Source: an uncultured Verrucomicrobiota bacterium
GTDB taxonomy: Bacteria > Verrucomicrobiota > Verrucomicrobiia > Limisphaerales > MWDV01
Direction of reading: 5' to 3'
Assembly: GCA_964548925.1 (NCBI GenBank)
Contig: CAZJTM010000003.1
Coordinates: forward strand, 16,155-80,154
DNA: 64,000 bases
Position 1 is the stretch's first letter; every line of letters begins with the position of its first letter. Shown here piece by piece: positions 21,154 through 49,774 of the stretch. The position numbers were made by a program, and so were the translations under genes. The notes beneath the pieces were generated by a model. It saw only the letters and a program-made list of their open reading frames with translations. It was not told the origin of the DNA and ran no database searches.

Positions 21154-21227
21154 TGCCCGATGGTGTAACGGTAGCACAGCAGACTCTGGATCTGTTTGTC
21201 ATGGTTCAAATCCATGTCGGGCAGCCA
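21154..21227 (+). tRNA. tRNA-Gln (anticodon CTG), CCA encoded
   Basis: Manual cloverleaf. Acceptor TGCCCGA/TCGGGCA is 7/7 paired with U1-A72 and G73. D stem GTGT/GCAC. Anticodon stem GCAGA/TCTGT with loop CTCTGGA. T arm CATGG-TTCAAAT-CCATG. Total 74 nt. It lies on the strand opposite the surrounding nuo genes. Confidence 0.85.
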
Positions 21228-32400: not shown

Positions 32401-35158
32401 TTTTTGCCCACGCCGCAAAAGACGCGTGCGTCCGCTCCAAGTTCCGCAGATCGCTTGCGGGCAGTGAACTGTCGCCGCCGGTGAGGTCGGCGAATGCAGG
32501 CGTGGCTACGCGCGCCTGCCAGTTCAACTCGCGGAGTTGTGCGGCCAGATGCCAGAGAGCACCGGCAGGTGACAGATCGCCGGAGAGTCCAAGGCCCTCG
32601 ATAAAGGCGGCCCGGCGGAAGGCCACACAGCGGGCGGCCCTGCCCAACGCCTGCGGCAACGATTCAGCGGCATCGTTCGTCGCTCCGCTCGGGAAGAGCA
32701 GCGCGGTTGTTGGATTCCGCAAGCTGGCGAGCACCTGTTCATCCCAACCGCGCCGCGCACGCACCCCGTCGTCCGTGAAGAGCAGCGCGAAGGACGGCGA
32801 GCGGTCGGCCTGACTGTTGAGACACTGAGAAAGCGAATCTGCGGACTGACGTTGGACCGCCCACGCGCGGAAGACATTGTTGGTATGCCGCAGCGTGAGC
32901 GTCTTCAGTTCGTCGGTGATCTTGGCGACGATGGTAACTACTTCGATTCCGCGACCGGGCGCCGCGTTTTCCTTCAGGCGTGTCAGGCACTCTTCAAAGC
33001 GGGCGAGATCATTGCCCGCCTGGACGATCACAGTGATCTCAGGCGGCACGCCTTCGGCCACTTCGCCCACACCGGACAGCAACATCGCGCGACTGTAGGA
33101 AAAGAAATCGTCGGTGGCCTTGGGGCTTTCGAGTTGATGCACCGCCTGGGGCCAAAGCACGCCCTGCGCCGCAAGCAGGCGCGCATAACCTCCCTTGCGC
33201 CATTGCTCGCGGTCGCTGGTGGCGCAGATGGTTTTAACGCCCTCCGCGAAGTAGTAGTCATCCAGGGGAATGGTGGCGAAGTGGCGGAGTTCGGCCTGCA
33301 ACGGGAACGCGCTGGCCCGGCCGAGGATCATCGCTCCGGCACGGTCAATGTCCGTCAGCACGCGCGCGCCAAGCGCCGAGTCGCCTCCCAGTGATGCAGG
33401 CTTCTGCGCCCGCGTCCAGAGCCAGAGCTTCTGGAAGGCAAGCACCCCGTCCTTGAAGGCGCGCTGGCGGCGGAGCAGTTCCGGCGCGAAGCGCATTTCA
33501 TCGAGCACCGGGGCGACGCTGCCGTCGGGCTGGCGTTGGTAGCCGAGGGTGGTGCCGATCGGCGCGGTCAGACATTGCTCGACAAACGCGGGCGAGCGGA
33601 TGAAGGAGGCGAAGTGGAAATCGGGCTTGCCAAACGAGCCGAGGAAATGCCGGACGTCCAGACCGTCCAAGACGCGACTGGCCGCGCGTTCGCAGGTGAC
33701 CAGATAGCAGCCCACCATCGGCACGCGGATTCCTTCCATCTCCAGGATGCGGGCCATCTGCATCTGAGCCGACGCGTTATAGCCAATGTCGCACACGCCA
33801 AACGCCGCGCCGCTCTCGAGCCACGGCCGCAGATAGTCCACCACCTTGCGGCGTTCTTCGGCGCTGCGGGCCTCAATGCGCTGGGCAATCTCCGGGGTGA
33901 ACAAATGCTTCGCCAATTGGTGCAGCCGGTCGGGGCCGTTCACGCGCTCGTCGGCCGAAAACGGCAGGCCGCGCAGGTGTTCTGCCCCGAGGCCGAAATG
34001 CTTGAGAATGGTCTTCACCGGCAGCGTTTCGCGGCGGCCCAGCCAGTCCAGCAGATTTTCCGCGCTGAGCCGGCCAATCGCAGCGAGGTCGGTGGATTTC
34101 CGATTGACGAACAGCGGTTCAATGGTCAGGGGCAAGCCTTGGTGGTTTGCCTCCGCTTGCAGCAGTTGCCCAAACAGGTCGCCTTCGCGCATGAACGCGC
34201 CGACCTTGCGGACGCCGCTGGCGGTGAACTGCTCACACGCCCAGGTGGCAAATCGGGACAGCAACGGCCCCAGCAACAGCGCGCCGGATCGGGCAAAAAA
34301 GGCTTCCGCAGTTTCTCCCGGGAACTGGCGGGCGGCCAGCAACCGCAGCGAGTTGATGCTGAACGCCGGCTCGCTTCCTCCCAGCAGTGCCGCTTCGCGC
34401 GCCAGCACAGTCTGCGCGGTGGGCGCCGCCTGAACGTATTGGCAGGCGCGCACGCCGGCCTTGCGGGCACCCGCAACATCCGCCCCCGGATTGTCGCCGA
34501 GGTGCAGGAGTTCCTCCGGCTTCAGCTGTAAGGTTTTCAGGGCGGCGCGAAAAAGGTTGCCCGTGCCTTTGCAAACCCCGCAATCGCTGGAAGTGAAGAT
34601 GTGCTCAAAGAAACCGGGGTCGCAATGATTGGCCCGGAGGATTTCTCGCAGCGCGTCCGCCGCAAGATAGATGTCCGAAATGATCACGGTGCGCAGGCCG
34701 CGTTCGCGGGCGTGGCGGGCGAACGCCAGCACGCTCGGATTGAGCACACAAAGGTCCGCCTCGGCGGCCACTTCAAACTGGGCAGCCAGTGCGCCGTCCT
34801 TGACGAGCGTGCGCATTTGGGCATAAACGGCTTCCAACCGAACGTCCTCGACCGCCTTGTCCCGGCTGTGTTGGGCTTGGCGGGCCTTGCCCTCGGCCAC
34901 GCGCCGCAAGGTGGCGAAATCCGCCGGCGTGACGTGAGCAGGGATCAATTGTTGTTCCTTCAACCGGCGGCCGATTTCTGGAAAGACATCCGTGGGCCGT
35001 GTCGTCAGCCGCCAGACCAACGTATCAAAGAAGTCAAACGAGACGGCGCGCACCCGACCGGCGCTCAACTCGATCAATTCCGCGGCGCGGCGGAGGGATT
35101 CTTCATTGCGCCAGAGATCAGCGGGAAGTGGCAAGGCAGGGTTCATGGGAGCATTCAC
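29465..35158 (-). CDS. Giant multidomain protein: HAD-like hydrolase + unknown ~480-aa region + three GT-A/GT2-like modules + TPR regions (GTG 35158 or ATG 35146)
   Basis: HAD motifs SFDFFDTLV, IISD and LGDNPGADVAGA (nt ~34420-35050). Divergent GT-A-like module ~32450-33045 (EITVIVQAGND..). Canonical GT2 module 31680-32330 (VVDNGSNDGT, NLGFAAGNNQG, LLNNDT, EDDDFCIRA). Short TPR region ~31200-31400. Second GT2 module ~30600-31090 (VVDTGSTDRT, MLDADEEL). C-terminal TPR-like helical repeats 29465-30560. Confidence 0.8.
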   Translation of the reverse strand: MNAPMNPALPLPADLWRNEESLRRAAELIELSAGRVRAVSFDFFDTLVWRLTTRPTDVFPEIGRRLKEQQLIPAHVTPADFATLRRVAEGKARQAQHSRDKAVEDVRLEAVYAQMRTLVKDGALAAQFEVAAEADLCVLNPSVLAFARHARERGLRTVIISDIYLAADALREILRANHCDPGFFEHIFTSSDCGVCKGTGNLFRAALKTLQLKPEELLHLGDNPGADVAGARKAGVRACQYVQAAPTAQTVLAREAALLGGSEPAFSINSLRLLAARQFPGETAEAFFARSGALLLGPLLSRFATWACEQFTASGVRKVGAFMREGDLFGQLLQAEANHQGLPLTIEPLFVNRKSTDLAAIGRLSAENLLDWLGRRETLPVKTILKHFGLGAEHLRGLPFSADERVNGPDRLHQLAKHLFTPEIAQRIEARSAEERRKVVDYLRPWLESGAAFGVCDIGYNASAQMQMARILEMEGIRVPMVGCYLVTCERAASRVLDGLDVRHFLGSFGKPDFHFASFIRSPAFVEQCLTAPIGTTLGYQRQPDGSVAPVLDEMRFAPELLRRQRAFKDGVLAFQKLWLWTRAQKPASLGGDSALGARVLTDIDRAGAMILGRASAFPLQAELRHFATIPLDDYYFAEGVKTICATSDREQWRKGGYARLLAAQGVLWPQAVHQLESPKATDDFFSYSRAMLLSGVGEVAEGVPPEITVIVQAGNDLARFEECLTRLKENAAPGRGIEVVTIVAKITDELKTLTLRHTNNVFRAWAVQRQSADSLSQCLNSQADRSPSFALLFTDDGVRARRGWDEQVLASLRNPTTALLFPSGATNDAAESLPQALGRAARCVAFRRAAFIEGLGLSGDLSPAGALWHLAAQLRELNWQARVATPAFADLTGGDSSLPASDLRNLERTHASFAAWAKNLLGSPAVSTPAGEAAPASAAGKPMASVILLVLNQLEHTRRCLESLAAHTPLPHEIIVVDNGSNDGTPEFLREWLAKTPHGIVIHNETNLGFAAGNNQGLALARGQNVVLLNNDTVVTAGWLEGMLDVLRREPDTGVVGPMSNRVSGPQFVSEVGYTDLSGLPAFAKQWAQTHAGQSFEVGRAVGFCLLARREVIERIGGLDERFGSGNFEDDDFCIRARLAGFRIRIAKDVFIHHTGSQTFKGAKIDYRSAMLRNWDLFRAKWQLPADVALEKGYPIPQQLPAGVSLNIPLSALTLTHKGNSERFWQPVAASMSSRVVTGESPLSRAGAGAAKLGQLDEARGAFGRREFAAAWQAACTALQVRPFHPEACLLLAEIALAAGDAASAKSCAHRAAELAPRWNAPKQFLKKPLKGGAKPEWLALPEQIRNPKSEIRSRLTVGVLTRNEEQFITQCLNSVKGLADQIIVVDTGSTDRTIEIAKSLGAEVYTTTWNDDFSAPRNRILEHATGDWILMLDADEELPGDQHAALRADLRKADAIAFRLPLVNRGQEAEGRSFIPRLFRNAPGAYYYGRIHEQVFPSLLPLCKTFGMDTALGTACLLHHGYSKELVRDRNKIERNLRLLRLGLEERPTDINLTLNLGLELARSGEVESGIAKYRDAFRLMSAQKPNEVVPELREVLLTQFTSHLYKIRAHDEVVQVLNSSLARSGGGLTASMHFALGLSHYELKQPREAAEQMRQCLAKLKQPALSPINTDILTAAPHHCLALSLAKLNDAAGAEKAFQAGLASAAKTEDLRVDYARFLVAQGRPVEALQRLHEVVQQNAKHALAWRLGGEIALSQPAFLEFARDWTNEAVRLFPDDLALVGQRAEALLLSQQARQAQPLWERACNGARPPRAVAAAILCATLEAQPGLCPQSAAEELNVSRAFVDWYRRLVAYRAVETVVQLNSRVGMLRETLPGAARVIESVAAAANAAEPG
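31098..31125. repeat. (cggattt)x4 heptanucleotide tract inside the giant gene
   Basis: Read directly. It translates on the minus strand as QIRNPKSEIRS in the linker between a TPR region and the last GT2 module. The same heptamer family occurs at 58085-58111. Confidence 0.9.
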
Positions 35159-35167
35159 GGCGGCAGA

Positions 35168-36634: not shown

Positions 36635-38011
36635 TCAGAAGAGCCCGAACTTCTTGACGAGTTCGTCGGTGCGGATGCCTTGAGCAATGGCCAGCAGGAT
36701 GCCGCCTTCGTTGCCGCGACGGCGCAACGCTTCCTCCAGAATCGCCGTCTCCTGCTTCTTGGGGATGACGACGATGCCGTCGCAATCGGCGAAGATCAGG
36801 TCGTCTTTGTGGACGCTGATGCCGTCAATGACAATGGTCTTGTTCCGCGAGGTGACGACGCCGCGCTTGCGGGTGTCCTTGCAGTGATGGCCCTTGGCGA
36901 AGACCGGGAAGCCCATACGCCGCGTGTCCGGCCAGTCGCGCGTGACGCCGTCAATGATCGCTCCCACCGCGCCGGCGCGAATGGCGAGGTTGGCATTCAA
37001 CTCGCCGAAGAACGCGAAGCCGGGGGCGTGGTTGGCAACGACAATAACATCGTTGCTTACGACGTGATCGTAAAGATGGAGGCTGTCGTAAATTTTGCGG
37101 AAATCCTCGTCGTCGGAGCAGAGATCAATCTGCAGGGTCTTGGCGCGCCCAAGGATCTTCTGGTCGGGGAGGTTCAGTTGGAACTCCCGGGAAAGGACGC
37201 CGCTCACGCCCAGATCGTCCATCACGTCGGAGAGCAGCGGGCTGTTGAGCTGGAGCTTGAGGTTGGCGAAGAGGCGGCGCTCCTGTTCGCGCAGGCCGAT
37301 GGCGATGAGATTGGCCATCTCGAAATCCACGGGCCAGTTCACGTCCACGCTTTCGAGCGGGTCAATCTCCAGCAGGAACGGCCGGTCGCCGATGCGGCGT
37401 TTGGTGGCGAGCGCGGCGTCGCGCCGGACGGCATAGAGGCCCATGGACTCGATGATGTTGTCTTCGAGGTCCACGCTGTTGGGGATGTGGTTGAGGTCGT
37501 AACGCGGTCGGCCGTTCTCCCAGCGGTATTGCTTCTCCTTGCGGACGGCAACCACCGAATCATAGCGGTCGTCCGTCTTGAGAATCTCGATGGCCTTCTC
37601 GATCGTCTCGGTTCTGATGAAAGGCGACGTGCCGAGCAACTGCACGCAGATGTCAGCGTCGCAGTTGACGACCTCGTTGAGGAACAATTGGTGGCCGTCG
37701 GTCTTGTTCGAGGCGAGCGTGGGGTCGCGGCGCAGGATGCGGCATTTGACCTCAGAGGCGAGGCTGATGATCTCGTGCGACTCGGTGTCGAGCCAGACCT
37801 CATCCACGGAGGGGCAGGCGGCGAGTTTCTTCAGGCTGCGCAGGAAGAGCGGCTCGCCGTCCAGCAACATCGTATTCTTGTTGGGCACGCGCTGGCTGGA
37901 GCCCTTGGCCGGGAGGAAGGCGGCAACCGTCATGGTCTTGGGCTGCGCCTGCCGCTCCGTTGTGAATTCAGGGGCTTCGCCCACTGAGGTGGCAGCGACG
38001 GCAGCGCTCAT
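36635..38011 (-). CDS. Fusion protein: N-terminal CMP-sugar (NeuA/KdsB-type) cytidylyltransferase + C-terminal RraA/HMG-aldolase-like domain
   Basis: N-terminal part: AAFLPAKGSSQRVPNKN, VWLDTESHEI, VQLLGTSPF. C-terminal part: GRAKT, NDVIVVA..AFFGELNANLAIRAGAVGAIIDGVTRD, GFPVFAKG, DDLIFADCDGIVVIP. Confidence 0.75.
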   Translation of the reverse strand: MSAAVAATSVGEAPEFTTERQAQPKTMTVAAFLPAKGSSQRVPNKNTMLLDGEPLFLRSLKKLAACPSVDEVWLDTESHEIISLASEVKCRILRRDPTLASNKTDGHQLFLNEVVNCDADICVQLLGTSPFIRTETIEKAIEILKTDDRYDSVVAVRKEKQYRWENGRPRYDLNHIPNSVDLEDNIIESMGLYAVRRDAALATKRRIGDRPFLLEIDPLESVDVNWPVDFEMANLIAIGLREQERRLFANLKLQLNSPLLSDVMDDLGVSGVLSREFQLNLPDQKILGRAKTLQIDLCSDDEDFRKIYDSLHLYDHVVSNDVIVVANHAPGFAFFGELNANLAIRAGAVGAIIDGVTRDWPDTRRMGFPVFAKGHHCKDTRKRGVVTSRNKTIVIDGISVHKDDLIFADCDGIVVIPKKQETAILEEALRRRGNEGGILLAIAQGIRTDELVKKFGLF

Positions 38012-38029
38012 GGTGCAAGGATTCCAAAC

Positions 38030-38882: not shown

Positions 38883-39686
38883 TTATTGCAGCAGCCGGAG
38901 CACGGACTGCGGCATGGAATTGGCCTGCGCCAGCATCGCGGTGCCGGACTGGACGAGGATGTTCTGCTTCGCGTATTGGGTGCTTTCCTCGGCCACGTCC
39001 ACATCTTGGATGCGGGAGCTGGCGGCGGTGAGGTTCTCTTTGCTCACCATCAGTTGTTGGACCGTCGAGTTCATGCGGGCCTGGTAGGCGCCGATGGTCG
39101 CGCGGTCCTCCGAAAGTTTGGTAATCGCGGCCTTGATCTTGGTCAGCGTGTCCTGCGCTTCGGTGTTCGTCGCCACGCTGCCATTGAAGGCCTCGGTGTA
39201 AACGGCCGCGCCGAGGCTGATGCCCTGCATGGCGAAATTGTTGCCGTCCGAGTCAATGACCACGTTGAGGCTGTCGCCGGTGAACAGGCTGACCCCGTTG
39301 AAGTCCTTGGTGGCGGCGCTGGTGATGTAGGCGCTCAACTGGCCGAATTCACTTTGGTAGAGCTGGCGGTCGTTGTCGGACTTGGTAACGTCCTGCGCGA
39401 GGATCGAGAGTTCGCTCATCCGGTCCAGCGCCTTGGCGATGGTCTTGAGATAGCCATCCTGGGTCTGGGTGTAGGAGATGGCGTTGCCCACGTTGTCGCG
39501 CGCGGCGTCGAGCCGGCGGATTTGGGCGTCCAGGCGGGAAGCGACGGCCAGCCCGGCGGCGTCGTCTCCCGGTTGGATGATCTTGCTGCCGGAGCTGAGG
39601 CGCGAGAGTGAGCGGCTCAACATGGCTTGGTTGGTCTGCAGGTTGTGCGAGGAAACCTGCGCGGCGATGTTCGTGTTGATGATCAT
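38883..39686 (-). CDS. fliC: Flagellin (short, D0/D1-only type)
   Basis: MIINTNIAAQVSSHNLQTNQAMLSRSLSRLSSGSKI..DDAAGLAV at the N terminus. TAMLAQANSMPQSVLRLLQ at the C terminus. 267 aa. Confidence 0.95.
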   Translation of the reverse strand: MIINTNIAAQVSSHNLQTNQAMLSRSLSRLSSGSKIIQPGDDAAGLAVASRLDAQIRRLDAARDNVGNAISYTQTQDGYLKTIAKALDRMSELSILAQDVTKSDNDRQLYQSEFGQLSAYITSAATKDFNGVSLFTGDSLNVVIDSDGNNFAMQGISLGAAVYTEAFNGSVATNTEAQDTLTKIKAAITKLSEDRATIGAYQARMNSTVQQLMVSKENLTAASSRIQDVDVAEESTQYAKQNILVQSGTAMLAQANSMPQSVLRLLQ

Positions 39687-39707
39687 AGAACGGGCGGTTG
39701 GATGGAG

Positions 39708-40006: not shown

Positions 40007-40444
40007 TTATTCAGCGTCGGCCAGCGGCAACGGATGTTGCACCGAGTAGGCGGACGCATTGGCGATGACCACCTGCTTGCCGACCCCGGAGTGGCGGTTC
40101 ACAACGATGGGCCCCTTCAGATTGACCGTGGCGCGGTTGGGGCCGTGCAAGGTCACGATATTGAGCAACTGCGCGTCCTCGGGGGCGGTGATGCCGAGGA
40201 ATTCCACATCGGGCGGCGGGAGGTTGGGCTGATAATCCGGCACGACCAGGAACGGATCCACCACGATAAAGGCCAGGGCGGGATTATTTCTGACCTCCAG
40301 CCAGCGGAAGGGTTCCTCGCCGGGGTTGGTGATGAGCACGTAGTCTTTGATCTGCTCAAACCCCAGAAGCCCCATCGGCAGCCTCAATCCGTGGCTGGTG
40401 GCCTTTTCAGGCGTGTCCGTTACTGTCGGGCTATCGCATTTCAT
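40007..40444 (-). CDS. fliW: Flagellar assembly factor FliW
   Basis: LPMGLLGFEQIKDYVLI..PFRWLEV..PALAFIVVDPFLVVPDY is FliW-like. It sits directly upstream of csrA, the same order as fliW-csrA-hag in B. subtilis. Confidence 0.88.
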   Translation of the reverse strand: MKCDSPTVTDTPEKATSHGLRLPMGLLGFEQIKDYVLITNPGEEPFRWLEVRNNPALAFIVVDPFLVVPDYQPNLPPPDVEFLGITAPEDAQLLNIVTLHGPNRATVNLKGPIVVNRHSGVGKQVVIANASAYSVQHPLPLADAE

Positions 40445-41277
40445 TCCGCAGAACGTTTAGCAACGGATATGCCAGCACCCGGGGCGACGACTTCTGCTGG
40501 CGTAACTTGCGGGAAATCAACTCGGCAAACCCCTTTGCAGAGGAGCGCGGCTCAGTCTCGCTTGGTTGAGGCATCCCTTCACCGGCAAAAAAGGTCGGCG
40601 TGGGGATGAAATTGCCCGGTGCGGGATCGCGCCCGAGAGCCTGGTGTCGCAACCGAGGCGATGGAGGTAATGGGGTTGGCGTTGAGCCGTTCGCGGAGTT
40701 TAGCCCGAGCGGCCCGCCGATGTTTTGGCGGTTACGCAGGAGCAACCCGCCATCACTCTTGACCCCGGCGCGGGCCGGTTTGTCTTGCCGGAGCCGGTGG
40801 GCTTTCTCTTCGCGTCCGCGTCCCCTCCCGCCGACCCAGAATCCCTGTTGATGGCGAGGCTTGATACCGACCATGGCGTAACGCGGTCCCGGTGGCATGG
40901 CGAACGCATCTGGGGCCAAGAGCTTGACCGGCGACTCGTCCACCGGTCCGCGCGTCGTTGCTCAAGAGCACTTATCGAGGGCTTTGGTCGTCCCGCAAGG
41001 CAAGCCAGACCCAATTCATCGCCGTTCCGGCCTCCGCACAGTTCGGCAAACTCTACCCGCCTCAACAGTGGCGGATGATCCGCAGTCGGTTCTCGGTTCA
41101 CCCGGCCATCTTCTCGTTTTCTTCTTCGGATTCCACAGGGTGGAAATCCCGGCCGGTTCGCGTGGTGATGCCTGTTTTCTCTGGAAAAGAGTCGTTTCTG
41201 TGACAGAACGGTGACGTTTTGGCAACACGGCCAGTCTGCGTTTGACTCGCCTCGCTCCCCTTTTGGATAAAGTAGGC

Positions 41278-42276
41278 ATGCGACTTTTCTCAGTTGTCTT
41301 GTTGGCGGTGCTGGTCTGCGGCTGCGCGGGCGCGAAAAAGCGCGGGGCCAGCATGAAAGACCCCTATGACGCGGTGCGCGTGGACCAGATGACCGGCAAC
41401 CACGTGTCCGGCCAGGTCTTCGAGCGAACGATCGTTTGCCTGAACGCCCGCCGCGAGACGCGCGCCCTGACCGTGCTGACCAACCAAACCGTGGCGCTCG
41501 TCACGAACGTGTCGCTGAGCTACGTCACCAACCTGAGCTTCACCCTCTCAACGAACCAGCAAACAGCCTTCGCCACCAACGAGGTCGCCGCCCTGCCCCC
41601 GCTGGCGGCGGCGGAGGCCAACGAGACAGGTGAAGCTGTGGCAGTTGCCTCCGCGCCCCTGCCGCCTCCCAGCACCAATGTCAGCCTGACCGCCGCCCAC
41701 AACGCCGTGCTGTCGAAGGCTGGCAGCCAAACCGTGCTCACGGCCAGCGCCCAGCAGCAGCGCAGCCGGCAAGTCACGACGACCCACGGCAACTTCACCG
41801 TGACGGCGGCAGATAACGAGAACACCTCCGCCGAAACCAACACAGTGGTGACGGTGGTGACGAACCTGACCGTCACGGCGGTCACAAATGTCACCGTCAC
41901 GCTCACGAATCAGCCGCTGCACGACTACTTCCTGACGGTGGAATACACCCCACCGCCGGACTTCGCGCTGCAATCGGGCGAATCCTTGGTGCTGTTGGTG
42001 GATGGCGTGCGGCATCCGTTGACGCAGGCGACTTCGCCCTCCGTGCTGGTGCCGCGCCGCGGTTTCTCCGTCGTCCTCTACCGCGCCACGCCGCAGTTGT
42101 TCGTGGACATCGCCAATGCCAAGCAGGTGAGCTTGCGGCTCAAAGGCGCAACGGCGGTCATCGAAAAGAAGATGAACGCCAGCAGCCGCGCCAACTTCCG
42201 CAAATTCCTGGTCAAGTATTTCACCCCGGAGTCATCGCAATGCGCCACGGCTGAATCCCCTCAACCGAACTCCTGA
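41278..42276 (+). CDS. Putative lipoprotein with Thr/Val/Asn-rich repeats carrying 10 N-X-S/T sequons (ATG 41278 preferred)
   Basis: Signal peptide with a lipobox-like LVCGC. Repeats such as TNQTVALVTNVSLSYVTNLSFTLSTN and VVTVVTNLTVTAVTNVTVTLTN. No family recognised. Confidence 0.6.
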   Translation: MRLFSVVLLAVLVCGCAGAKKRGASMKDPYDAVRVDQMTGNHVSGQVFERTIVCLNARRETRALTVLTNQTVALVTNVSLSYVTNLSFTLSTNQQTAFATNEVAALPPLAAAEANETGEAVAVASAPLPPPSTNVSLTAAHNAVLSKAGSQTVLTASAQQQRSRQVTTTHGNFTVTAADNENTSAETNTVVTVVTNLTVTAVTNVTVTLTNQPLHDYFLTVEYTPPPDFALQSGESLVLLVDGVRHPLTQATSPSVLVPRRGFSVVLYRATPQLFVDIANAKQVSLRLKGATAVIEKKMNASSRANFRKFLVKYFTPESSQCATAESPQPNS

Positions 42277-42277
42277 C

Positions 42278-42988
42278 ATGAAGAAAGCGGTCATTGTCCT
42301 CGCTATTCTCGCCGCCGCGTTCGCTTTCGCGTTGTTCCGCGCCAAGCAGAGCGCCGGTGTGGCGGCGCAACAGGCACAAGCCCAACTCGGTGCGGTATCC
42401 AACCGCATCAGCGAATTGGAGATGAAGCTCAACCACCAGGAACAGCTTGCTCGCTCGCTCGGCAGCCAGGTCACGAACCGGGTTGAGGAACTGAGCCAGC
42501 GCGCCGCCGAGATCAACCGGCTGCGCACGGCCCTCACGCGGGCCGAATCGGAAACGGGCGAGGTCCAAACCCGTCTGGCGGCCACCGAACCGGTTCGGCA
42601 GCGGCTCGAAACGGACATCGCCGGACTGAAATCCCGCATCGCGGAACTGGAGTCTTCTCTGGCACAGAGCGCCACGGAAAGTCATGCCCTCAAGGATCAG
42701 TTGGCCGCGCTCCACACGCAGCGCAACGCCCTGGCCCTGCAACTGGCGCACGCGCGGCAGGAAACCGCCACTTTGGGGGGGCGGCTGGAGAACCCCGATT
42801 TCCTGAAGGCCCAAAAGAACGCGCTCGCCCGCGCCGACAAGAGTTCTGCTTCGACCAACCGCGTCCCTCCGGTAACGTCTCCTCGTTTCCAAGCCGCGGC
42901 GGTCTCCAAGCCCCCCGCAGTCCCGCGGGTTTCCACATCGCTCGAGCTGCAGCCCGACGGTTCTGTTCGCAACGTGCCGGCCAACTGA
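42278..42988 (+). CDS. Membrane-anchored coiled-coil protein
   Basis: N-terminal TM helix (AVIVLAILAAAFAFALF). About 150 aa of heptad-like Q/E/L/R-rich sequence follow, then a Pro-rich tail. It starts 1 nt after the lipoprotein stop. Confidence 0.6.
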   Translation: MKKAVIVLAILAAAFAFALFRAKQSAGVAAQQAQAQLGAVSNRISELEMKLNHQEQLARSLGSQVTNRVEELSQRAAEINRLRTALTRAESETGEVQTRLAATEPVRQRLETDIAGLKSRIAELESSLAQSATESHALKDQLAALHTQRNALALQLAHARQETATLGGRLENPDFLKAQKNALARADKSSASTNRVPPVTSPRFQAAAVSKPPAVPRVSTSLELQPDGSVRNVPAN

Positions 42989-43308
42989 ATCGGCACGCTG
43001 CTGAGTTGATCGCAGCCGGCCGGCCGGGGTTGCAGCAGAACTCCGCCTCAGCAAATCGTCCACGTTCCATCGGCTCGACCACGAGCAGTTGCTCCACATG
43101 ATTGATAGCCGCGCCACGCAGCGCCATTGAGCCAGGTTGGCCGGAGGCGGATTGGATTGTAACAATTGGCGGCTTGCGCGGACCGTAACGCGCCCATTAT
43201 ACACCTCCGGAGCGCGTGCGTCGCGGTTGGCCGCGGCGTGGGGGCGCTTGCGCCCTGCCGTCCGGTTGGAAAGCGGAGCAAACTGCCGGGCGGACGGGCG
43301 ATGAACTT

Positions 43309-44451
43309 GTGACCCAAGCCAGACACAATCACTTGAATCCGCCAACACATTTTGAGGCCTCCCTCCAGCGGGCGATGGATGCCATCCGCGCGAAGGTCAC
43401 GCAAATGGCCGGGTTGGATGAGCGCGCCTTGAAGGCCAGCTTGCAGGCGTTCGTGGAGCGCAATCGGCAGTTGGCCTACTCGGTCATTCTGCGCGACCAG
43501 TATCTGGACGAGTTGGAAACGGAACTGGACCGGCTTTGCCTGGAATTCCTCGTGCGGCAGCAACCCGCCGCCGGCCCGCTGCGATTCGTTTTCACCACCA
43601 TCAAGATTAACAAGGAACTGGAGCGGATCGGGGATTACGCCGAGAGCGTCGCCCGCCAGGCGCTGAAGCTCAGTCCACTGGCGACGCCCCTGCCGCAGGA
43701 GAAGTTCGTCGAACTGGGCAACCTCGCCGTCCACATGCTGCGCGACGCGGTCCAGGCGTTTCTGGATCAGGACGCGGAGCTGGCGCGCCGGACGATGCTG
43801 ATCGAGGAGCGCGGGAATACCTTGCGCAACCAACTGAACGCGGAACTCTCCGCCCTGCACGATGCCGGGAAGCTGCCGACGGAGGCGTTGACCCCGCTGC
43901 TGACCATCGCCCGGCGTTTCGAGCGCGTCACGGATCAGACGAAGAACATCTGCGAGGAAGTGCTTTACCTTTGCACGGGCGAGTTCACCCATCATCCCGG
44001 CGCGGAGGCGTTCCGGATTTTGTTCGTGGATGCCGACAACTGCTGGCTCAGTCAGATGGCGGAGGGCATTGGCAATTCGCTGGGCGTGCCCGGGTTTGTT
44101 TTCAGCAGCGCGGGCATTGCGCCCCGGCCGGTGGACGCGCGGGTGGTGGAGTTCATGTCCCGGAAGGGCATTGATCTCTCGCGCCACACGAGCAAGACCC
44201 GTGAGCAAGTGCCGAACTGGGATCACTACCAAGTCGTGATCGCGCTGTGCGAGGAAGCGCAAAAAGTTTTCCCCGCAGCGCCCACGAAGACGATTTGCCT
44301 CACGTGGTCCCCGCCCGTCCCGGCCAGTACCGAGGGCAGTCTGGAGACGGTGCAAGCTGCTTTCACTTCCGCGTTCAACTTTCTTCAGGATCAAATCCAG
44401 GTTTTGGTGGAGGCGATCCGCGGAGAACCTCAACAACAAACGACCTCATGA
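43309..44451 (+). CDS. PhoU-domain protein fused to a degenerate LMW phosphatase/ArsC-like domain (GTG 43309 suggested; track start 43216)
   Basis: Two PhoU repeats (KELERIGDYAESVARQ and RRFERVTDQTKNICEEV). The C-terminal domain aligns by eye to LMW-PTP, but the P-loop reads V-D-A-D-N-C-W-L-S (44026-44052) instead of V-C-x-G-N-x-C-R-S. Confidence 0.75.
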   Translation: MTQARHNHLNPPTHFEASLQRAMDAIRAKVTQMAGLDERALKASLQAFVERNRQLAYSVILRDQYLDELETELDRLCLEFLVRQQPAAGPLRFVFTTIKINKELERIGDYAESVARQALKLSPLATPLPQEKFVELGNLAVHMLRDAVQAFLDQDAELARRTMLIEERGNTLRNQLNAELSALHDAGKLPTEALTPLLTIARRFERVTDQTKNICEEVLYLCTGEFTHHPGAEAFRILFVDADNCWLSQMAEGIGNSLGVPGFVFSSAGIAPRPVDARVVEFMSRKGIDLSRHTSKTREQVPNWDHYQVVIALCEEAQKVFPAAPTKTICLTWSPPVPASTEGSLETVQAAFTSAFNFLQDQIQVLVEAIRGEPQQQTTS

Positions 44452-45377
44452 AACCGAACACGATTATTTCAAATTTCATCCGCCCTGGCGTGGGCGTCAC
44501 CGGTGCGGTCGCCCTGGCTTTGGGACTGGCGGGTTGCGGTCCGAAAGGCGACGGCGGCTCAGGCGGCGGCACCGCGGCGAAACCGGCAGAAATCCGCGTC
44601 AAAGGCTCGGACACGATGATCCAGCTCGCGACCGCGTGGGCCGAAGCCTACCGGAAGGTGCGGCCGAACGTGTATGTCAACGCCAACGGCGGCGGCAGCG
44701 GCACCGGCATCGCCGCCCTCCAGAACAACAACACGGACCTCTGCAACGCCTCGCGCGAGATCAAGCCCGAGGAACGGGAGAAGGTCAAAGCCGCCACCGG
44801 CAAGGAAGTGAAGGAATTCGTCGTGGCCTACGACGCCTTGGCCGTTTATTCCCATCCTTCGAATCCCATCAAGGAGATTACGATCGAAGACCTCCGCGAA
44901 ATTTGGGCCGAGGGCGGCACGATCACGCAGTGGGAGCAAGTCAGTCCGGCGTTCAAGGGCAAGATCGTGCTCTTTGGCCGGCAGAATAATTCCGGCACGT
45001 ACGACTATTTCCGCGAGCACGTCTGCGGCAAGACTGCGGACAAGAAACAGCGGGAGTTTCGCGGCGGCATCAGCGAGATGAACGGTTCGGCCGAAGTGGT
45101 CGAAAACATCGCGCGCACGCCCACAGCCCTGGGCTACAGCGGCATGGGTTACAAGACGCCGCATGTCAACTGGCTGAAGGTGGCGCACAAGAAAGGCGAG
45201 CCGAGCGTTGAGCCCGGCGTCGAAGCGGCGCGCTCCGGCAAGTATCCCATCTCGCGCAAGCTTTACATCTACTGCGCCGGCGAGCCGGAGGGCGAAGTGA
45301 AGGCCTTCATTGACTGGGTGCTTTCGCCGGAAGGACAAAAGATCGTCGAGAAGGAAGGCTTCGTGCCGGTGCATTGA
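44448..45377 (+). CDS. pstS: Phosphate ABC transporter substrate-binding lipoprotein PstS (ATG 44448)
   Basis: Lipobox LAGC. Motifs KGSDTMIQLA and GGGSGTGIAAL. The ATG overlaps the stop of the PhoU fusion (ATGA). Confidence 0.9.
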   Translation: MKPNTIISNFIRPGVGVTGAVALALGLAGCGPKGDGGSGGGTAAKPAEIRVKGSDTMIQLATAWAEAYRKVRPNVYVNANGGGSGTGIAALQNNNTDLCNASREIKPEEREKVKAATGKEVKEFVVAYDALAVYSHPSNPIKEITIEDLREIWAEGGTITQWEQVSPAFKGKIVLFGRQNNSGTYDYFREHVCGKTADKKQREFRGGISEMNGSAEVVENIARTPTALGYSGMGYKTPHVNWLKVAHKKGEPSVEPGVEAARSGKYPISRKLYIYCAGEPEGEVKAFIDWVLSPEGQKIVEKEGFVPVH

Positions 45378-45453
45378 CCGGCCCGGGGCTGCGCGCGATA
45401 CGAGTTCCGCCGGCAACCTGCGGCGGAGCCGCAAGTTCGGCGGCCCGCCTTGA

Positions 45454-46452
45454 ATGATGCCCAAACCCAATTCCTCCAAACCACGTCGCAGGTTCAACCT
45501 CCTCGACGCCCTTGAAGTCCCCACCGAATGGCTGATTCGGTTCTGTGGCTGGAGCGGCATCATTGCGGTTGCGGCCATCTTCCTGTTCATCTTCAAGGAA
45601 GCGGCGCCGATGGTGCCCAAGCTGGACTGGGTGCATTTCTTCACCAGCTCGCGCTGGATTCCAGAGCCCGGCGGCGATAATCCGGCCAGCTTTGGCGCGC
45701 TGGCGCTGATCACCGGAACGGTCGCCACCACGTTCCTCGCGCTCCTCTTCGCCGTGCCGATTGGACTCGGCGCCGCGGTTTACATCTCCGAGTTCGCCCA
45801 GGGCAAGGTGAAGGAGACGTTGAAGGTGCTGATCGAAATGCTCGCGGCGATCCCGTCCATCGTGTGGGGATTCATTGGCTTGATGGTGCTGGGGCCGATC
45901 ATCACAACAATCTTCAGCGCCGAGCCGGGAAGCTGGTGGGGGCACACCATGGTCGCGCTGCGCATCGCCAGTTCGGAAACCGGCGCGGCGCAGGGCACCA
46001 ACCTCCTCACTGGCAGCATCGTGCTCGCGCTGATGAGCGTGCCGCTGATCGTGTCGCTCTCGGAAGACGCGCTGCGGGCCGTGCCGGATTCGTTTCGCGA
46101 GGCGGCGCTGGCACTTGGGGCGAACCCTTGGGAAACCGTGCGGCGTGTGCTGTTTCCGGCCGCGCGGAACGGCTTGCTCGCCGCCTGCATGCTGGGCATG
46201 GGACGCGCCATCGGCGAAACCATGGCCGTGCTGCTGGCTGCCGGCCACAGCAACCGCATCCCCGCCTTCCTCACCGATCCGGTGCGAACCATGACCGCCA
46301 CCATCGCCGCGGAAATGGGGGAAACGGTGCATGGCAGCGATCACTACCGGGTGTTGTTCATTCTCGGCATCGTGCTGTTCGCCGTCACTTGCGCCATCAA
46401 CGTCGCCGCCGACTTCATCATCAAGGGCGTCAAGAACCAGGAGCATTCGTGA
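45454..46452 (+). CDS. pstC: Phosphate ABC transporter permease PstC
   Basis: Polytopic permease with the EAA-type loop (SEDALRAVPDSFREAALALGANPWETVRRV). Confidence 0.9.
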   Translation: MMPKPNSSKPRRRFNLLDALEVPTEWLIRFCGWSGIIAVAAIFLFIFKEAAPMVPKLDWVHFFTSSRWIPEPGGDNPASFGALALITGTVATTFLALLFAVPIGLGAAVYISEFAQGKVKETLKVLIEMLAAIPSIVWGFIGLMVLGPIITTIFSAEPGSWWGHTMVALRIASSETGAAQGTNLLTGSIVLALMSVPLIVSLSEDALRAVPDSFREAALALGANPWETVRRVLFPAARNGLLAACMLGMGRAIGETMAVLLAAGHSNRIPAFLTDPVRTMTATIAAEMGETVHGSDHYRVLFILGIVLFAVTCAINVAADFIIKGVKNQEHS

Positions 46453-47426
46453 CCGCCGCCCCTCCAGCCCCGTTTGCTGAAAACCCCTTTGCGCCGGGAG
46501 AATTTGAGCGTCGCAAGGCGCGCCGGGCCAACCGGAACAAATGGTTGCTTTTCGTTTGCTGCCTCCTGCTGGTGCTGCCGATCCTCGCCATCCTGATCTA
46601 CATCTTCATTCGCGCCGCGCCGATTCTCTCGCCCGAATACATCTGGTTGAATCCCGCCGACAAGGGCAAGACCGGGGGACTGTGGGCGCCGCTGGTCGGC
46701 ACCTTCTATCTGGTTGTCGGATCGCTGGTGGTCGTGGCGCCGGTCGGCATTCTCGCCGCCATCTACTTGAACGAATACGCCCGCGAAGGCTGGTTCAAAC
46801 GGATGGTCAGCATCACGGTGACCACGCTGGCCGGCGTGCCCAGTATCGTGCATGCGTTGTTTGGGCTCGGCGCGTTCGTGCTCGGAATGCTGCCGGCGCT
46901 CAATCGCGTGCTGGCGGATCCGAACGACCTGACCACGCGGTGGCAGGCGGGGCTTTTGACCGCCTCCCTGACCATCGCCGTGATGACGTTGCCGGTGATC
47001 ATCACCGCCGCGCGCGAGGCCCTGAACGCCGTGCCGCACGCCTTCCGCGAGGCGTGCTGGAACCTCGGCGCCAGCCGCTGGCAGACCATCCGCACCATCG
47101 TGCTCCCCAATTCCTTCGGCGGCATCCTTACGGGCGTGATTTTGGAAGTGTGTCGCGCGGCGGGCGAGACGGCCCCGATCTTGTTTACCGGCGCCACGTT
47201 CTTCAAGTTCGTCGCCGATCAAGGGCTGGCGAAGTTCTTTCCGTATCACATCGGTGAGCCGTTCATGGCCATGTCCATGCACCTGCACGTGATCTCCAGC
47301 CAGATTTCGCAGATGCCCGAAGTCATGAAATTCGGCGCGGCGGCGGTGCTCATCGGACTGATCCTGTTTGTCAACAGCTTCGCCATCGTCCTGCGCATCT
47401 GGCTGCGTAGCCGCAAACGCTGGTAG
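46449..47426 (+). CDS. pstA: Phosphate ABC transporter permease PstA (GTG 46449, GTGA overlap with pstC)
   Basis: The C-terminal two thirds of track ORF 45864..47426 is permease-like (AAREALNAVPHAFREACWNLGASRWQTIRTIVLP). The upstream part of that ORF is an out-of-frame shadow of pstC. Confidence 0.88.
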   Translation: MTAAPPAPFAENPFAPGEFERRKARRANRNKWLLFVCCLLLVLPILAILIYIFIRAAPILSPEYIWLNPADKGKTGGLWAPLVGTFYLVVGSLVVVAPVGILAAIYLNEYAREGWFKRMVSITVTTLAGVPSIVHALFGLGAFVLGMLPALNRVLADPNDLTTRWQAGLLTASLTIAVMTLPVIITAAREALNAVPHAFREACWNLGASRWQTIRTIVLPNSFGGILTGVILEVCRAAGETAPILFTGATFFKFVADQGLAKFFPYHIGEPFMAMSMHLHVISSQISQMPEVMKFGAAAVLIGLILFVNSFAIVLRIWLRSRKRW

Positions 47427-47436
47427 CCCGGCGGTT

Positions 47437-48201
47437 ATGACGGACACCCGCACGCACATCGAGTTCCGCAACGTCTCGGCCTTCTATGGCTCGAAACAGG
47501 TGCTCCGGGAGGTTGGCTTCAGCGTGCCGCGCAACACCATCTTCGGCATCATTGGTCCGGCCAACTCGGGCAAGACCACGCTGCTCAAGACGATCAACCG
47601 CACGCTGGAGTTCGTGGGCGGCGCGCGGTCGAGCGGGCAGGTATTGCTCAACGGCGCGGACGTGGCCGCCGTGCGCAATCCAACCGAACTGCGCCGGCGC
47701 ATCGGCATGGTCTTTCCGCTGCCGGTGGGACTGCCATTGACGGTTTATGAAAACGTGGCCTATGCGCCCCGCCGGATGGGCATCGCTGACAAAGCGCAGT
47801 TGGACGAAATCGTGGAGCGGTCACTGCGGCAGGCGGTCTTGTGGGACGAAGTGAAGGACCGCTTGGGCTCGCTCGGCACACGGCTCTCGGGCGGCCAGCA
47901 ACAACGCCTCACGCTGGCCCGCGCCCTGTCGCTCTCGCCGGAGGTGCTTTGCCTGGATGAATTCAGCATCGCGATTGATCCGGTCACCACCATGCGCATC
48001 GAGGAGGTGCTGAAGGAGTTGAAAACGACGCTCACGATCATCCTCGTCACCAATCTCCTCCAGCAGGCCCGGCGGATTGCCGACAACACATTGTTCCTGT
48101 GGCGCGGCGAGGTGATCGAACTCGGCCCGACGTCGGTTGTGTTCAGCGACACGCCAAAAGATAAACGCACCTACGACTACGTGAACGGGATTTTCGGATG
48201 A
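47437..48201 (+). CDS. pstB: Phosphate ABC transporter ATP-binding protein, paralog 1 (canonical LSGGQ; Q-loop Gln and H-loop His missing)
   Basis: Walker A GPANSGKTT. Signature LSGGQQQR (47884-47898). Walker B LCLDEF. The Q-loop position reads MVFPLP. The H-loop position reads VTNLLQQ (Asn codon at 48052-48054). Confidence 0.85.
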   Translation: MTDTRTHIEFRNVSAFYGSKQVLREVGFSVPRNTIFGIIGPANSGKTTLLKTINRTLEFVGGARSSGQVLLNGADVAAVRNPTELRRRIGMVFPLPVGLPLTVYENVAYAPRRMGIADKAQLDEIVERSLRQAVLWDEVKDRLGSLGTRLSGGQQQRLTLARALSLSPEVLCLDEFSIAIDPVTTMRIEEVLKELKTTLTIILVTNLLQQARRIADNTLFLWRGEVIELGPTSVVFSDTPKDKRTYDYVNGIFG

Positions 48202-48971
48202 GCGAGGAGCGTTACTGCATCACGACGCACGGGCTGAACTTGTGGTACGCCAAGTTCCAGGCGCTGCTCAACGTGTCGGTGAACATCAAGCACGGCATCA
48301 TCACTTCGCTCATCGGTCCGTCTGGCTGCGGCAAGACCACGCTCCTGCGCTGTTTCAACCGGGTGAACGAGCGCTACGGCTACGTCACCACCACGGGCGA
48401 GATCAAGATTCTCGGGAAGAACATTTACGATCCGGACGTCTCCCTCATCGAACTGCGCAAGTCGGTCGGGATGGTGTTCCAGCGCCCCAACCCGCTGCCC
48501 ATTTCCGTCTATGAGAACGTGGTCTTTGGCCTGCGCCTGCATCGCGAGTCGAAGGACACCAAACGCGCGATCCTCGACCAGGCCGTCGAGCAAGCCCTGA
48601 CCGAGGTCGGCCTCTGGAGCGAACTCAAGGACCGGTTGGACACCAAGGCCACCCGGCTGCAACTGGAGCAGCAGCAAAAACTCTGCATCGCCCGACTCCT
48701 GCCGCTCAAGCCGCAGATCATTCTCATGGACGAACCCTGTTCCGCGCTGGATGTCGAAGGCACGCGCGCCATCGAGGAACTGATGTTCAGTCTGAAGGGC
48801 CGTTACAGCATCGTCATCGTGACGCACAACATGGCTCAAGCCCGCCGCGCGAGCGACGAGTGCCTGTTCATGCTGCTGGGCGAGGTGGTCGAGCATGCCC
48901 GCACCGAGCAACTGTTCCTTGCCCCCAAGCATCCCAAGACCGCCGAGTACATCGAAGGCCGCTACGCGTAG
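48198..48971 (+). CDS. pstB: Phosphate ABC transporter ATP-binding protein, paralog 2 (canonical Walker A/B, Q- and H-loops; degenerate signature)
   Basis: Walker A GPSGCGKTT. Q-loop MVFQRPNP. Walker B ILMDEPCSALD. H-loop VTHNM. The signature position reads LQLEQQQK (48657-48671) instead of LSGGQ. Confidence 0.85.
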   Translation: MSEERYCITTHGLNLWYAKFQALLNVSVNIKHGIITSLIGPSGCGKTTLLRCFNRVNERYGYVTTTGEIKILGKNIYDPDVSLIELRKSVGMVFQRPNPLPISVYENVVFGLRLHRESKDTKRAILDQAVEQALTEVGLWSELKDRLDTKATRLQLEQQQKLCIARLLPLKPQIILMDEPCSALDVEGTRAIEELMFSLKGRYSIVIVTHNMAQARRASDECLFMLLGEVVEHARTEQLFLAPKHPKTAEYIEGRYA

Positions 48972-49093
48972 GCCGACGACAGGGCATCCTCCGGGGCGGG
49001 GTGCTTTTCTTGCCGCCAACGCCACTCGAATCCTGAGCGACTTGCGGCGTGGTTTGGAGTCGCCCAGGTCGTTCCCCGGTGCCACATTGGGGC

Positions 49094-49774
49094 ATGATTG
49101 AAAACTCGGAGACTGTGAAACTTGCGGCGTCCCCCGAGACGGGCGCGCCCGGGCAAGCAGCCCCGGCCTTGTCCGCCGACCTGCGGGTGCTGGCGGAACA
49201 CTTCAAGGACGGGCCGGTGCGGCTGGCGGAGATCGTGGACGTGCTGCGCGGGCGGGGGTACCGCTTGTTCATCGTGCTGCTCTGCCTGCCTTTTCTGACT
49301 CCGATTCCGCTGCCGGGGTTGTCCACGGTGTTTGGCTTGGTCATCGCGCTCATCGGCTTTCGCCTCGCGTTGGGACGGAAGCCGCGTCTGCCGCGTCGGC
49401 TGTTGCAGAGGGAACTTCCGCCGCGCCTTTTGCCCAAGGTGCTGCGTGCCAGCAGCCGGCTGGTGGGCGCCTTCGAGCGGCTCTCGAAACCGCGTCTCCG
49501 GTTCTTCTACCGGAATGCCGCGTTTCAATGTCTCGGGGGCGCGCTGATCGCGCTCTGCGGGCTGAAACTCCTGCTGCCGATTCCCGTGCCGATGAGCAAC
49601 TTCTTTCCCGGCCTCGCGGCTGCGCTGCTGGCGGCGGGCTCGTTCGAGGAGGATGGGCTGGTGTTTCTCGCGGGAATCGTGACGTTTGCCGCGTCGCTCG
49701 GCTATTTCACGCTGTTGGCGTTCGGCGGCGTGGCGGCTGTGGGGCAGATCTGGCAACGGTTCTTCGGGGGCTGA
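49094..49774 (+). CDS. ExoD-like exopolysaccharide synthesis membrane protein (ATG 49094)
   Basis: LAEIVDVLRGRGYRLFIVLLCLPFLTPIPLPGLSTVFGLVIALIGFRLALG matches the ExoD family pattern as recalled. Confidence 0.65.
   Translation: MIENSETVKLAASPETGAPGQAAPALSADLRVLAEHFKDGPVRLAEIVDVLRGRGYRLFIVLLCLPFLTPIPLPGLSTVFGLVIALIGFRLALGRKPRLPRRLLQRELPPRLLPKVLRASSRLVGAFERLSKPRLRFFYRNAAFQCLGGALIALCGLKLLLPIPVPMSNFFPGLAAALLAAGSFEEDGLVFLAGIVTFAASLGYFTLLAFGGVAAVGQIWQRFFGG

Follow-up and report, generated by a model that had tools for sequence, protein, structure and literature searches.

A PhoU-type regulator with a predicted non-catalytic ArsC-fold domain heads a pst operon encoding complementarily degenerate PstB ATPases in Verrucomicrobiota and further phyla

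The accessory regulator PhoU of Escherichia coli binds the ATPase PstB of the phosphate-specific transport (Pst) importer, and how it reads the phosphate status and signals to PstB or PhoR is, to our knowledge, unsettled decades after its discovery. Members of the PhoU family are characterized by contacts with PstB and PhoR and by repression of the Pho regulon. Canonical PhoU proteins, including those of known structure from Aquifex aeolicus (1T72) and Pseudomonas aeruginosa (4Q25), feature PhoU repeats, a six-helix bundle and acidic motifs, and they are encoded in the pst operon. Here, we analyzed a stretch of 64,000 nucleotides (hereafter the window) from an uncultured Verrucomicrobiota bacterium (GenBank assembly GCA_964548925.1, contig CAZJTM010000003.1, positions 16,155 to 80,154 of the forward strand), which holds a phoU gene with these repeats, bundle, motifs and context whose product is, however, extended by a further domain of about 150 amino acids resembling arsenate reductases (ArsC) and low-molecular-weight protein tyrosine phosphatases (LMW-PTPs). 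Moreover, this fused phoU stands first, before pstS, whereas canonical phoU follows pstB at the end of the operon. The fused gene is paired with a predicted heterodimeric and asymmetric PstB, and in some genomes it is found beside an ordinary pstSCAB-phoU operon. With moderate confidence, we consider the fusion protein to be an accessory regulator of the PhoU type that acts specifically on the Pst importer of the genes directly downstream and whose C-terminal domain would serve a non-catalytic regulatory or docking role.

The assignment of the N-terminal half to PhoU, which the original prediction had based on two PhoU repeats, is well backed by family models and by structure. Pfam detects both repeats (PF01895, two stretches, E-value 1.2e-35, 122 bits against a threshold of 23.5), and the full-length NCBIfam model TIGR02135 (phoU_full) scores 159.2 bits, above its cutoff of 130.25. 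In an AlphaFold2 model built on a 58-sequence alignment (a single-sequence model with a predicted local distance difference test score, pLDDT, of 41 was discarded), this half forms a six-helix bundle comprising residues 14–50, 53–84, 89–121, 131–152, 156–185 and 191–223, which matches the PhoU structures 1T72 and 4Q25 with a target-normalized template modeling (TM) score of 0.95 in a Foldseek search of the PDB. The acidic E/D-x-x-x-D motifs are intact as well, with E105, D109 and E112 of the first repeat and E205 and D209 of the second invariant in the same alignment. Repeats, bundle fold, acidic motifs and the pstSCAB context, i.e., all PhoU traits accessible to computation, are consequently present in the fusion protein, and its PhoU half is intact.

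The C-terminal half shares the fold of the thioredoxin-coupled ArsC enzymes, e.g., those of Staphylococcus aureus pI258 (1LJL), Bacillus subtilis (1JL3) and Synechocystis (2L17), at 25–30% identity. Here, the resemblance noticed by eye in the original prediction was borne out by several searches: Pfam LMWPc (PF01451) is matched with an E-value of 3.8e-6 and 27.6 bits, exceeding the gathering threshold (23.2); in a phmmer search of the PDB, the last 155 residues align with ArsC of Synechocystis (6e-10) and of S. aureus pI258 (1e-8); and the modeled domain matches the ArsC structures 1JL3 and 1JF8 with TM scores of 0.84–0.86 (Foldseek, PDB). The model has a pLDDT of 89.2, reaching about 94 in the P-loop block, and only the linker at residues 228–232 is of low confidence. 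Common to the ArsC enzymes and the domain described here is a framework of N13, S17-Q-M-A-E, S-A-G and W...(D)P (ArsC numbering). TIGR02691, which represents the arsC_pI258 family, is also hit (E-value 8e-16), but only with 58.4 bits compared to an equivalog cutoff of 174.3.

Within this framework, however, the residues responsible for catalysis in the ArsC enzymes are replaced in the window protein. The phmmer alignment to PDB sequences places D241 on Cys10, L247 on Arg16, F321 on Cys89 and V337-P338 on Asp105-Pro106, so that Cys10 is exchanged for Asp, Arg16 for Leu, Cys89 for Phe and Asp105 for Val. The P-loop, canonically C-x5-R, thereby reads D-A-D-N-C-W-L, with both the nucleophilic Cys and the Arg lost, and the D-P general-acid motif is absent from WSPPVP; both substitutions had been proposed before from the letters alone, and the positions given for the two motifs turned out to be exact. 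In addition, the usual Cys15 is gone, the P-loop Cys of the window protein being displaced (Cys245), and the Cys82/Cys89 relay lacks its second member (Phe321). The Cys82 position is occupied by C314, a Cys which occurs there in just 6 of 120 homologues and in one of 50 fused domains at the species level. As the nucleophile position is held by Asp and the relay is disrupted (the relay cysteines are gone family-wide), the C-terminal domain of the window protein is predicted to be incapable of Cys-based phosphatase or arsenate reductase catalysis. Together with the TIGR02691 score of 58 bits against 174, the lost catalytic residues argue for a PhoU carrying a pseudo-ArsC domain and against an arsenate reductase.

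Phosphatase folds whose nucleophile was exchanged for Asp or Gly and which were kept under selection as regulatory or binding modules have been described for eukaryotic pseudophosphatase domains, including STYX (Cys to Gly) and the D2 domain of Drosophila PTP99A (Cys to Asp). A natural Cys-to-Asp PTP domain bound its substrate while being deficient in catalysis, according to the passage of PMC3172300 that cites Romsicki 2003. In contrast to these classical and dual-specificity phosphatases, the pseudo-ArsC domain belongs to the LMW-PTP/ArsC class, is of bacterial origin and fused to a transporter regulator, and has lost the Arg in the window copy.

The fusion is not restricted to the window. 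A protein database search returned at least 120 homologues with 59–99% identity, all of the PF01895+PF01451 architecture, which argues against a chance event; those bearing a name are called 'PhoU' and stem from Limisphaerales or Verrucomicrobiae. A survey across genomes, as had been suggested with the original prediction, was performed by scanning GTDB (one genome per species) with a profile of the C-terminal domain, yielding 426 confirmed relatives, the best 80 of which were annotated with phmmer and hmmalign. Among these 80, 50 full fused domains were found, and they come from Verrucomicrobiota, Myxococcota, Acidobacteriota, Calditrichota, KSB1, Fibrobacterota and Bacteroidota. In a neighbor-joining tree, 96 of 97 fused domains fall into one clade, and the fusion family, which spans at least seven phyla, is therefore of apparent single origin.

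Residue patterns within the family differ by position. Among the 120 homologues, the P-loop consensus reads D-x-x-N-A-C-L-S (D in 116, N in 115, C in 102, L in 102 with R in 13, S in 117), Cys82 and Cys89 are essentially gone, and the D-P acid motif is retained in 110. Across the 50 fused domains, the nucleophile position is occupied by D (39), G (9), S (1) or C (1); 32 of them retain Arg16, 42 Asp105, one Cys82 and none Cys89, and 30 combine Arg and Asp with the lack of a nucleophile. The neighboring stand-alone domains, on the other hand, retain C10, R16, C82, C89 and D105 without exception (27/27), and the same split between fused and stand-alone domains recurs when 1.84 billion cluster representatives are searched with a profile. 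Judged from these patterns, the exchange of Cys for Asp (or Gly/Ser) along with the loss of Cys82 and Cys89 is the ancient, family-defining change, the loss of Arg16 is specific to the Limisphaerales-like clade of the window protein, and the loss of the D-P Asp is late and sporadic, affecting 6 of the 26 nearest relatives of the window protein compared to 3 of 93 others. The window protein, with its D-A-D-N-C-W-L-S and V-P, is consequently an unusually eroded member; the P-loop and D-P losses of the original prediction hold for this protein, but family-wide Arg (32/50) and D-P (42/50) are mostly retained. A relocation of the Arg to P-loop position 12 or 14 in the Leu16 proteins was considered as well and rejected as a general compensation, since Arg or Lys is found there in only about 30 of 120 sequences.

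Further hints on the origin of the fusion come from loci in which the ArsC domain is still canonical. In a Gemmatimonadales locus (L057, 3858–8387), the order pstC-pstA-pstB-pstB-phoU is followed by a separate, fully canonical arsC, which argues for arsC beside phoU in a pst operon as a real starting state. In an outlier (P0196/L081, 2201–4077), a pstB-like gene is followed by the gene for a PhoU joined to an ArsC that is canonical throughout; this protein was considered as a direct ancestor of the family and rejected, as its position outside the fused clade and after pstB speaks for an independent fusion. Both could possibly represent evolutionary intermediates. Within the fused clade itself, L049, P0134 and P0178 retain the nucleophilic Cys and the D-P motif, the former two also Arg16, which makes an active ancestor likely. 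We infer a route by which an arsC adjoining phoU in a pst operon would have been fused to it and would have lost catalysis afterwards.

Beyond the fusion itself, which was the sole focus of the original prediction, the more interesting finding is the six-gene module that it opens and that had been overlooked. The order of fused phoU, pstS, pstC, pstA, pstB1 and pstB2 is constant in the loci L001–L053 and L056. In the window, three start/stop overlaps of four nucleotides occur, namely ATGA between phoU and pstS (44448–44451), GTGA between pstC and pstA (46449–46452) and ATGA between pstB1 and pstB2 (48198–48201). The first of these, where the pstS start codon (ATG, 44448–44450) overlaps the phoU stop codon (TGA, 44449–44451), had already been reported along with the unusual position of phoU ahead of pstS, a position which holds in the window and across the loci. 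Apart from the six genes themselves, clustering of flanking open reading frames (ORFs) from 55 loci revealed neither a conserved gene nor any linkage to phoR or phoB.

In an ATP-binding cassette (ABC) dimer, one subunit contributes Walker A, Walker B, the Q-loop and the H-loop to an ATP site, and its partner contributes the signature motif. In PstB1 of the window, the Q- and H-loops read MVFPLP and VTN while the LSGGQ signature is intact, and in PstB2 the signature is changed to LQLEQ in an otherwise canonical protein; the catalytic Walker B Glu is retained in both. As each ATP site combines both subunits, both defects would fall into one composite site, and a PstB1-PstB2 dimer with one consensus and one degenerate ATP site is predicted. 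One degenerate site, at which ATP is bound without being hydrolyzed, is known from heterodimeric ABC transporters (TM287/288, BmrCD, TAP, CFTR and, among importers, RbsA), but PstB1/PstB2 belong to a type I phosphate importer and keep the Walker B Glu in both nucleotide-binding domains. A pst operon with neighboring pstB1 and pstB2 genes is also known from Firmicutes, e.g., B. subtilis (PstBA/PstBB) and Enterococcus faecalis, where pstB1 and pstB2 have non-overlapping functions (PMC12096839); different from these, the pair described here is complementarily degenerate, and the operon opens with a fused phoU.

The complementary degeneracy of PstB1 and PstB2 was found in all of 37 related loci in addition to the window. 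In the reverse direction, metagenomes were scanned for DNA encoding the LxLEQQQK motif, counting loci with at least 4.5 kb of upstream sequence, and 14 of 15 such PstB2-type loci begin with the PhoU fusion, the exception being L110. The fusion gene and the degenerate PstB pair thus almost always occur together. In L110, pstB1 is seemingly split over two frames.

In several Acidobacteriota and metagenomic contigs, an ordinary pstSCAB-phoU operon directly adjoins the fusion operon (L045, 1–6518; L047, 1270–3001; L083, 5357–7780; L086). These organisms thus possess a pair of Pst systems, either of which comes with a separate PhoU, and the adjacent canonical operon argues that the fusion is a second, system-specific PhoU. 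Consistently, a recent survey described distinct PhoU-family regulators of the PhoU and PitR clades which each work with their own phosphate importer (mBio 2026, PMC13170248). The concept of a transporter-specific regulator is common to both, but the fusion clade lies outside that survey, as PhoU proteins with extra Pfam domains were explicitly left out.

Based on the behavior of E. coli PhoU, the PhoU bundle of the fusion protein would bind the PstB ATPase, and the pseudo-ArsC domain could provide a second, non-catalytic input. This might be a putative docking surface fixing one fused PhoU per asymmetric PstB1-PstB2 dimer or, alternatively, a ligand-gated switch within the domain; in either case, transport and/or Pho signaling would be tuned. 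For most family members, which lack the nucleophile but keep Arg and the acid Asp, it is plausible that the pocket is substrate-trap-like and could hold phosphate or arsenate. For the window protein, whose pocket is devoid of Arg, of the acid Asp and of the usual Cys15, we favor a structural or docking role, in which Asp241 might serve as an internal anion and thereby stabilize the fold of the P-loop.

Several observations weigh against such a dedicated regulator with a docking domain. Asn13, Ser17 and, in most relatives, Asp105 persist, which suggests that the pocket still matters and favors a ligand over pure docking. With a predicted TM score (pTM) of 0.60 and the low-confidence linker, the AlphaFold2 model leaves the pose of the two domains relative to each other undefined. 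In L110 (7245–11429), the degenerate PstB pair is present, yet pstS is not preceded by the PhoU fusion. Finally, no second PhoU is encoded within the 64-kb window, and no PhoR or PhoB was detected among the neighbors scanned (35.2 to 57.3 kb of the window).

An alternative option, which we rate as unlikely, is that the C-terminal domain of the window protein is a cytoplasmic phosphate or arsenate sensor, in which oxyanion binding to the P-loop would alter the action of PhoU on PstB or PhoR. In line with this, conservation extends to the backbone of the P-loop as well as to Asn244 and Ser248, Cys-to-Asp PTP domains can, by the cited passage of PMC3172300, still bind substrate, and descent from a pst-linked arsenate-binding enzyme, as illustrated by L057 and P0196, would make oxyanion sensing a natural property. 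The substrate-trap configuration of Arg16 and Asp105 without a nucleophile (30 of 50 species) fits the sensor as well, so that the phosphate-sensing pseudoenzyme put forward in the original prediction agrees with the bulk of the family. It is weakest, however, for the very protein for which it was proposed: the window protein has L247 in place of Arg16 and V337 in place of the acid Asp and positions a carboxylate at the center of the anion hole, Leu occupies position 16 in 102 of the 120 members of its Limisphaerales-like clade, and the acid Asp is eroding among its nearest relatives (lost in 6 of 26), which is unexpected for a pocket selected for oxyanion binding.

A bolder extension, which appears doubtful to us, would be that the six-gene module forms a distinct and widespread class of phosphate importers, where a PhoU with its own cytoplasmic oxyanion sensor, the pseudo-ArsC domain, acts on an obligate heterodimer of PstB1 and PstB2 at its single degenerate ATP site and thereby gates both transport and signaling.

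E. coli PhoU reportedly interacts with metals, as the title of a 2014 article by Gardner et al. has it. One might picture a pocket switched from an anion to a cation site, in which Mg2+ or Mn2+ would be bound by Asp241, Asn244, Ser248 and, in relatives, the Asp at position 337. Such a site would extend the known binding of Mn2+ and Mg2+ by PhoU. The combination of D10, L16 and D105 in most of the clade, i.e., two carboxylates without Arg, and the intact E-x-x-x-D motifs of the PhoU half would be compatible with this idea, but it is a purely geometric speculation, the window protein has Val at position 337, and relatives of the Arg type are unfit for a cation site. Overall, we regard it as improbable.

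Marginally less credible still is the view of the C-terminal domain as a neutral relic of the ArsC fusion, kept for folding or expression only and without a regulatory role. In fact, conservation of the domain falls short of that of the PhoU half (mean pairwise identity among the 120 homologues of 60% compared to 72%), and its catalytic residues are decaying progressively in the lineage of the window protein. On the other hand, it is retained at full length in at least seven phyla, no truncated versions occur among complete fusion genes, and many residues are near-invariant (D241, N244, S248, Q-M-A-E, S-A-G and W333), whereas over such a span one would expect a functionless domain of 150 amino acids to disappear or to become scrambled. 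This conservation of the domain core argues for a functional pseudoenzyme domain and against debris.

Surviving catalysis with altered chemistry, i.e., a phosphatase or phosphotransferase using Asp241 as acyl-phosphate nucleophile or Cys245 as displaced nucleophile, is highly improbable, since despite Asp at the nucleophile position in 116/120 and 39/50 sequences and the Cys-retaining members of the clade, whole sub-clades carry Gly (9/50) or Ser (1/50) instead, so that a nucleophile seems not to be required for the function of the family, the window protein lacks Arg16 and the general acid, and the Cys-to-Asp PTP precedent in the cited passage of PMC3172300 was catalytically deficient.

Our literature search found no published account of a PhoU-LMWPc/ArsC fusion or of the degenerate PstB pair. 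The PF01895+PF01451 architecture is already visible in precomputed Pfam annotations but uncharacterized, and current annotation of the fused proteins merely reads 'PhoU'; we believe that they represent a bacterial pseudoenzyme with the LMW-PTP/ArsC fold that had not been described before. The fusion offers several handles on phosphate sensing and on the gating of transport, including a candidate ligand pocket, a putative asymmetric partner in 1:1 stoichiometry and natural variants with and without the Arg. Moreover, it provides a traceable route from an active arsC neighbor via fusion to the loss of catalysis. If PhoU indeed possessed its own oxyanion sensor, this would be the first physically identifiable ligand input to PhoU/Pst signaling. 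The module is also carried by phyla that abound in soil and freshwater (Verrucomicrobiota, Acidobacteriota, Myxococcota), habitats in which phosphorus limitation is of ecological relevance.

The features of the locus are compiled in Table 1. The frame of the fusion gene is open from 43216, where an alternative in-frame GTG is located, and the GTG at 43309 may miss the true start by a few codons in either direction; residues 14–22 are conserved among homologues ahead of M23, which places the start upstream of the ATG at 43375. The linker between the two domains is the counterpart of the normal C-terminal tail of stand-alone PhoU, the latter ending in ...EGKSIKHHVEDGG in the protein of L057.

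Table 1. Features of the pst module and of the fusion protein in the window (aa, amino acids).
Feature	Coordinates	Strand	Description and evidence
phoU fused to pseudo-ArsC domain	43309..44451	+	First gene of the module, ahead of pstS; 380 aa from GTG 43309, TGA stop 44449–44451
PhoU repeat 1 (aa 30–117)	43396..43659	+	Pfam PF01895 stretch 30–117; E-x-x-x-D motif ELERIGDYAES at 43615–43647
PhoU repeat 2 (about aa 131–223)	43699..43977	+	Second PF01895 stretch; model helices 131–152, 156–185, 191–223; RFERVTDQ at 43915–43938
Interdomain linker (aa 224–234; G-E-F-T-H-H-P-G...)	43978..44010	+	pLDDT <50 at residues 228–232
Predicted ArsC/LMW-PTP-fold pseudoenzyme domain (aa 235–371)	44011..44421	+	Pfam LMWPc, partial TIGR02691, PDB phmmer, Foldseek
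Degenerate P-loop D241-A-D-N-C-W-L-S248 (canonical C-x-x-N-x-x-R-S)	44029..44052	+	PDB alignment, homologue alignment
W333-S-P-P-V-P338	44305..44322	+	General-acid D-P reads V-P; D in 110/120 close homologues
pstS, lipoprotein-type phosphate-binding protein	44448..45377	+	TIGR02136, 242 bits against cutoff 207; PBP_like_2
pstC permease	45454..46452	+	BPD_transp_1; position conserved across loci
pstA permease	46449..47426	+	GTGA overlap onto pstC stop
pstB1	47437..48201	+	Walker A and LSGGQQQR intact; Q-loop Gln to Pro (47701–47724), H-loop His to Asn (48046–48069)
pstB2	48198..48971	+	Walker A/B, Q-loop and H-loop canonical; LSGGQ to LQLEQQQK (48657–48680); ATGA overlap with pstB1
ATTGTAACAATTGG, candidate operator or Pho-box-like half-site	43156..43169	+	Upstream of fused phoU; almost identical element in L001

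Upstream of the fusion gene, TGTAACA or, more generally, TGT[A/G]ACA occurs in 9 loci compared to 0.45 expected, and direct repeats of TGT[A/G]ACA with an 11-bp phasing are present in L015, L019, L008, L048 and L052. The element bears a suggestive resemblance to a Pho box and might serve as operator. Scanning of 42800–49300 yielded no sigma-70 promoter and terminator-like matches at chance level (10 compared to 6.9 ± 2.6), and Rfam revealed no RNA element near the locus, its only match in the window being a single tRNA gene (21154–21224, +).

Two ORFs on the forward strand lie just upstream of the fusion gene, and neither is conserved beside the module in other loci. The first (41242–42276) encodes a lipoprotein-like product with Thr/Asn-rich repeats (VTNLTVTAVTNVTVTLTN) and has no Pfam match, and the second (42278–42988) encodes a membrane-anchored coiled-coil protein. 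Farther upstream, the reverse strand holds an ORF for a protein of 1900 amino acids (29465–35167) and another for a protein of 464 amino acids (36635–38029) combining a cytidylyltransferase domain (CTP_transf_3) with an RraA-like/aldolase domain, the latter ORF adjoining genes for a tetratricopeptide repeat (TPR) protein, flagellin (38883–39707) and FliW (40007–40444).

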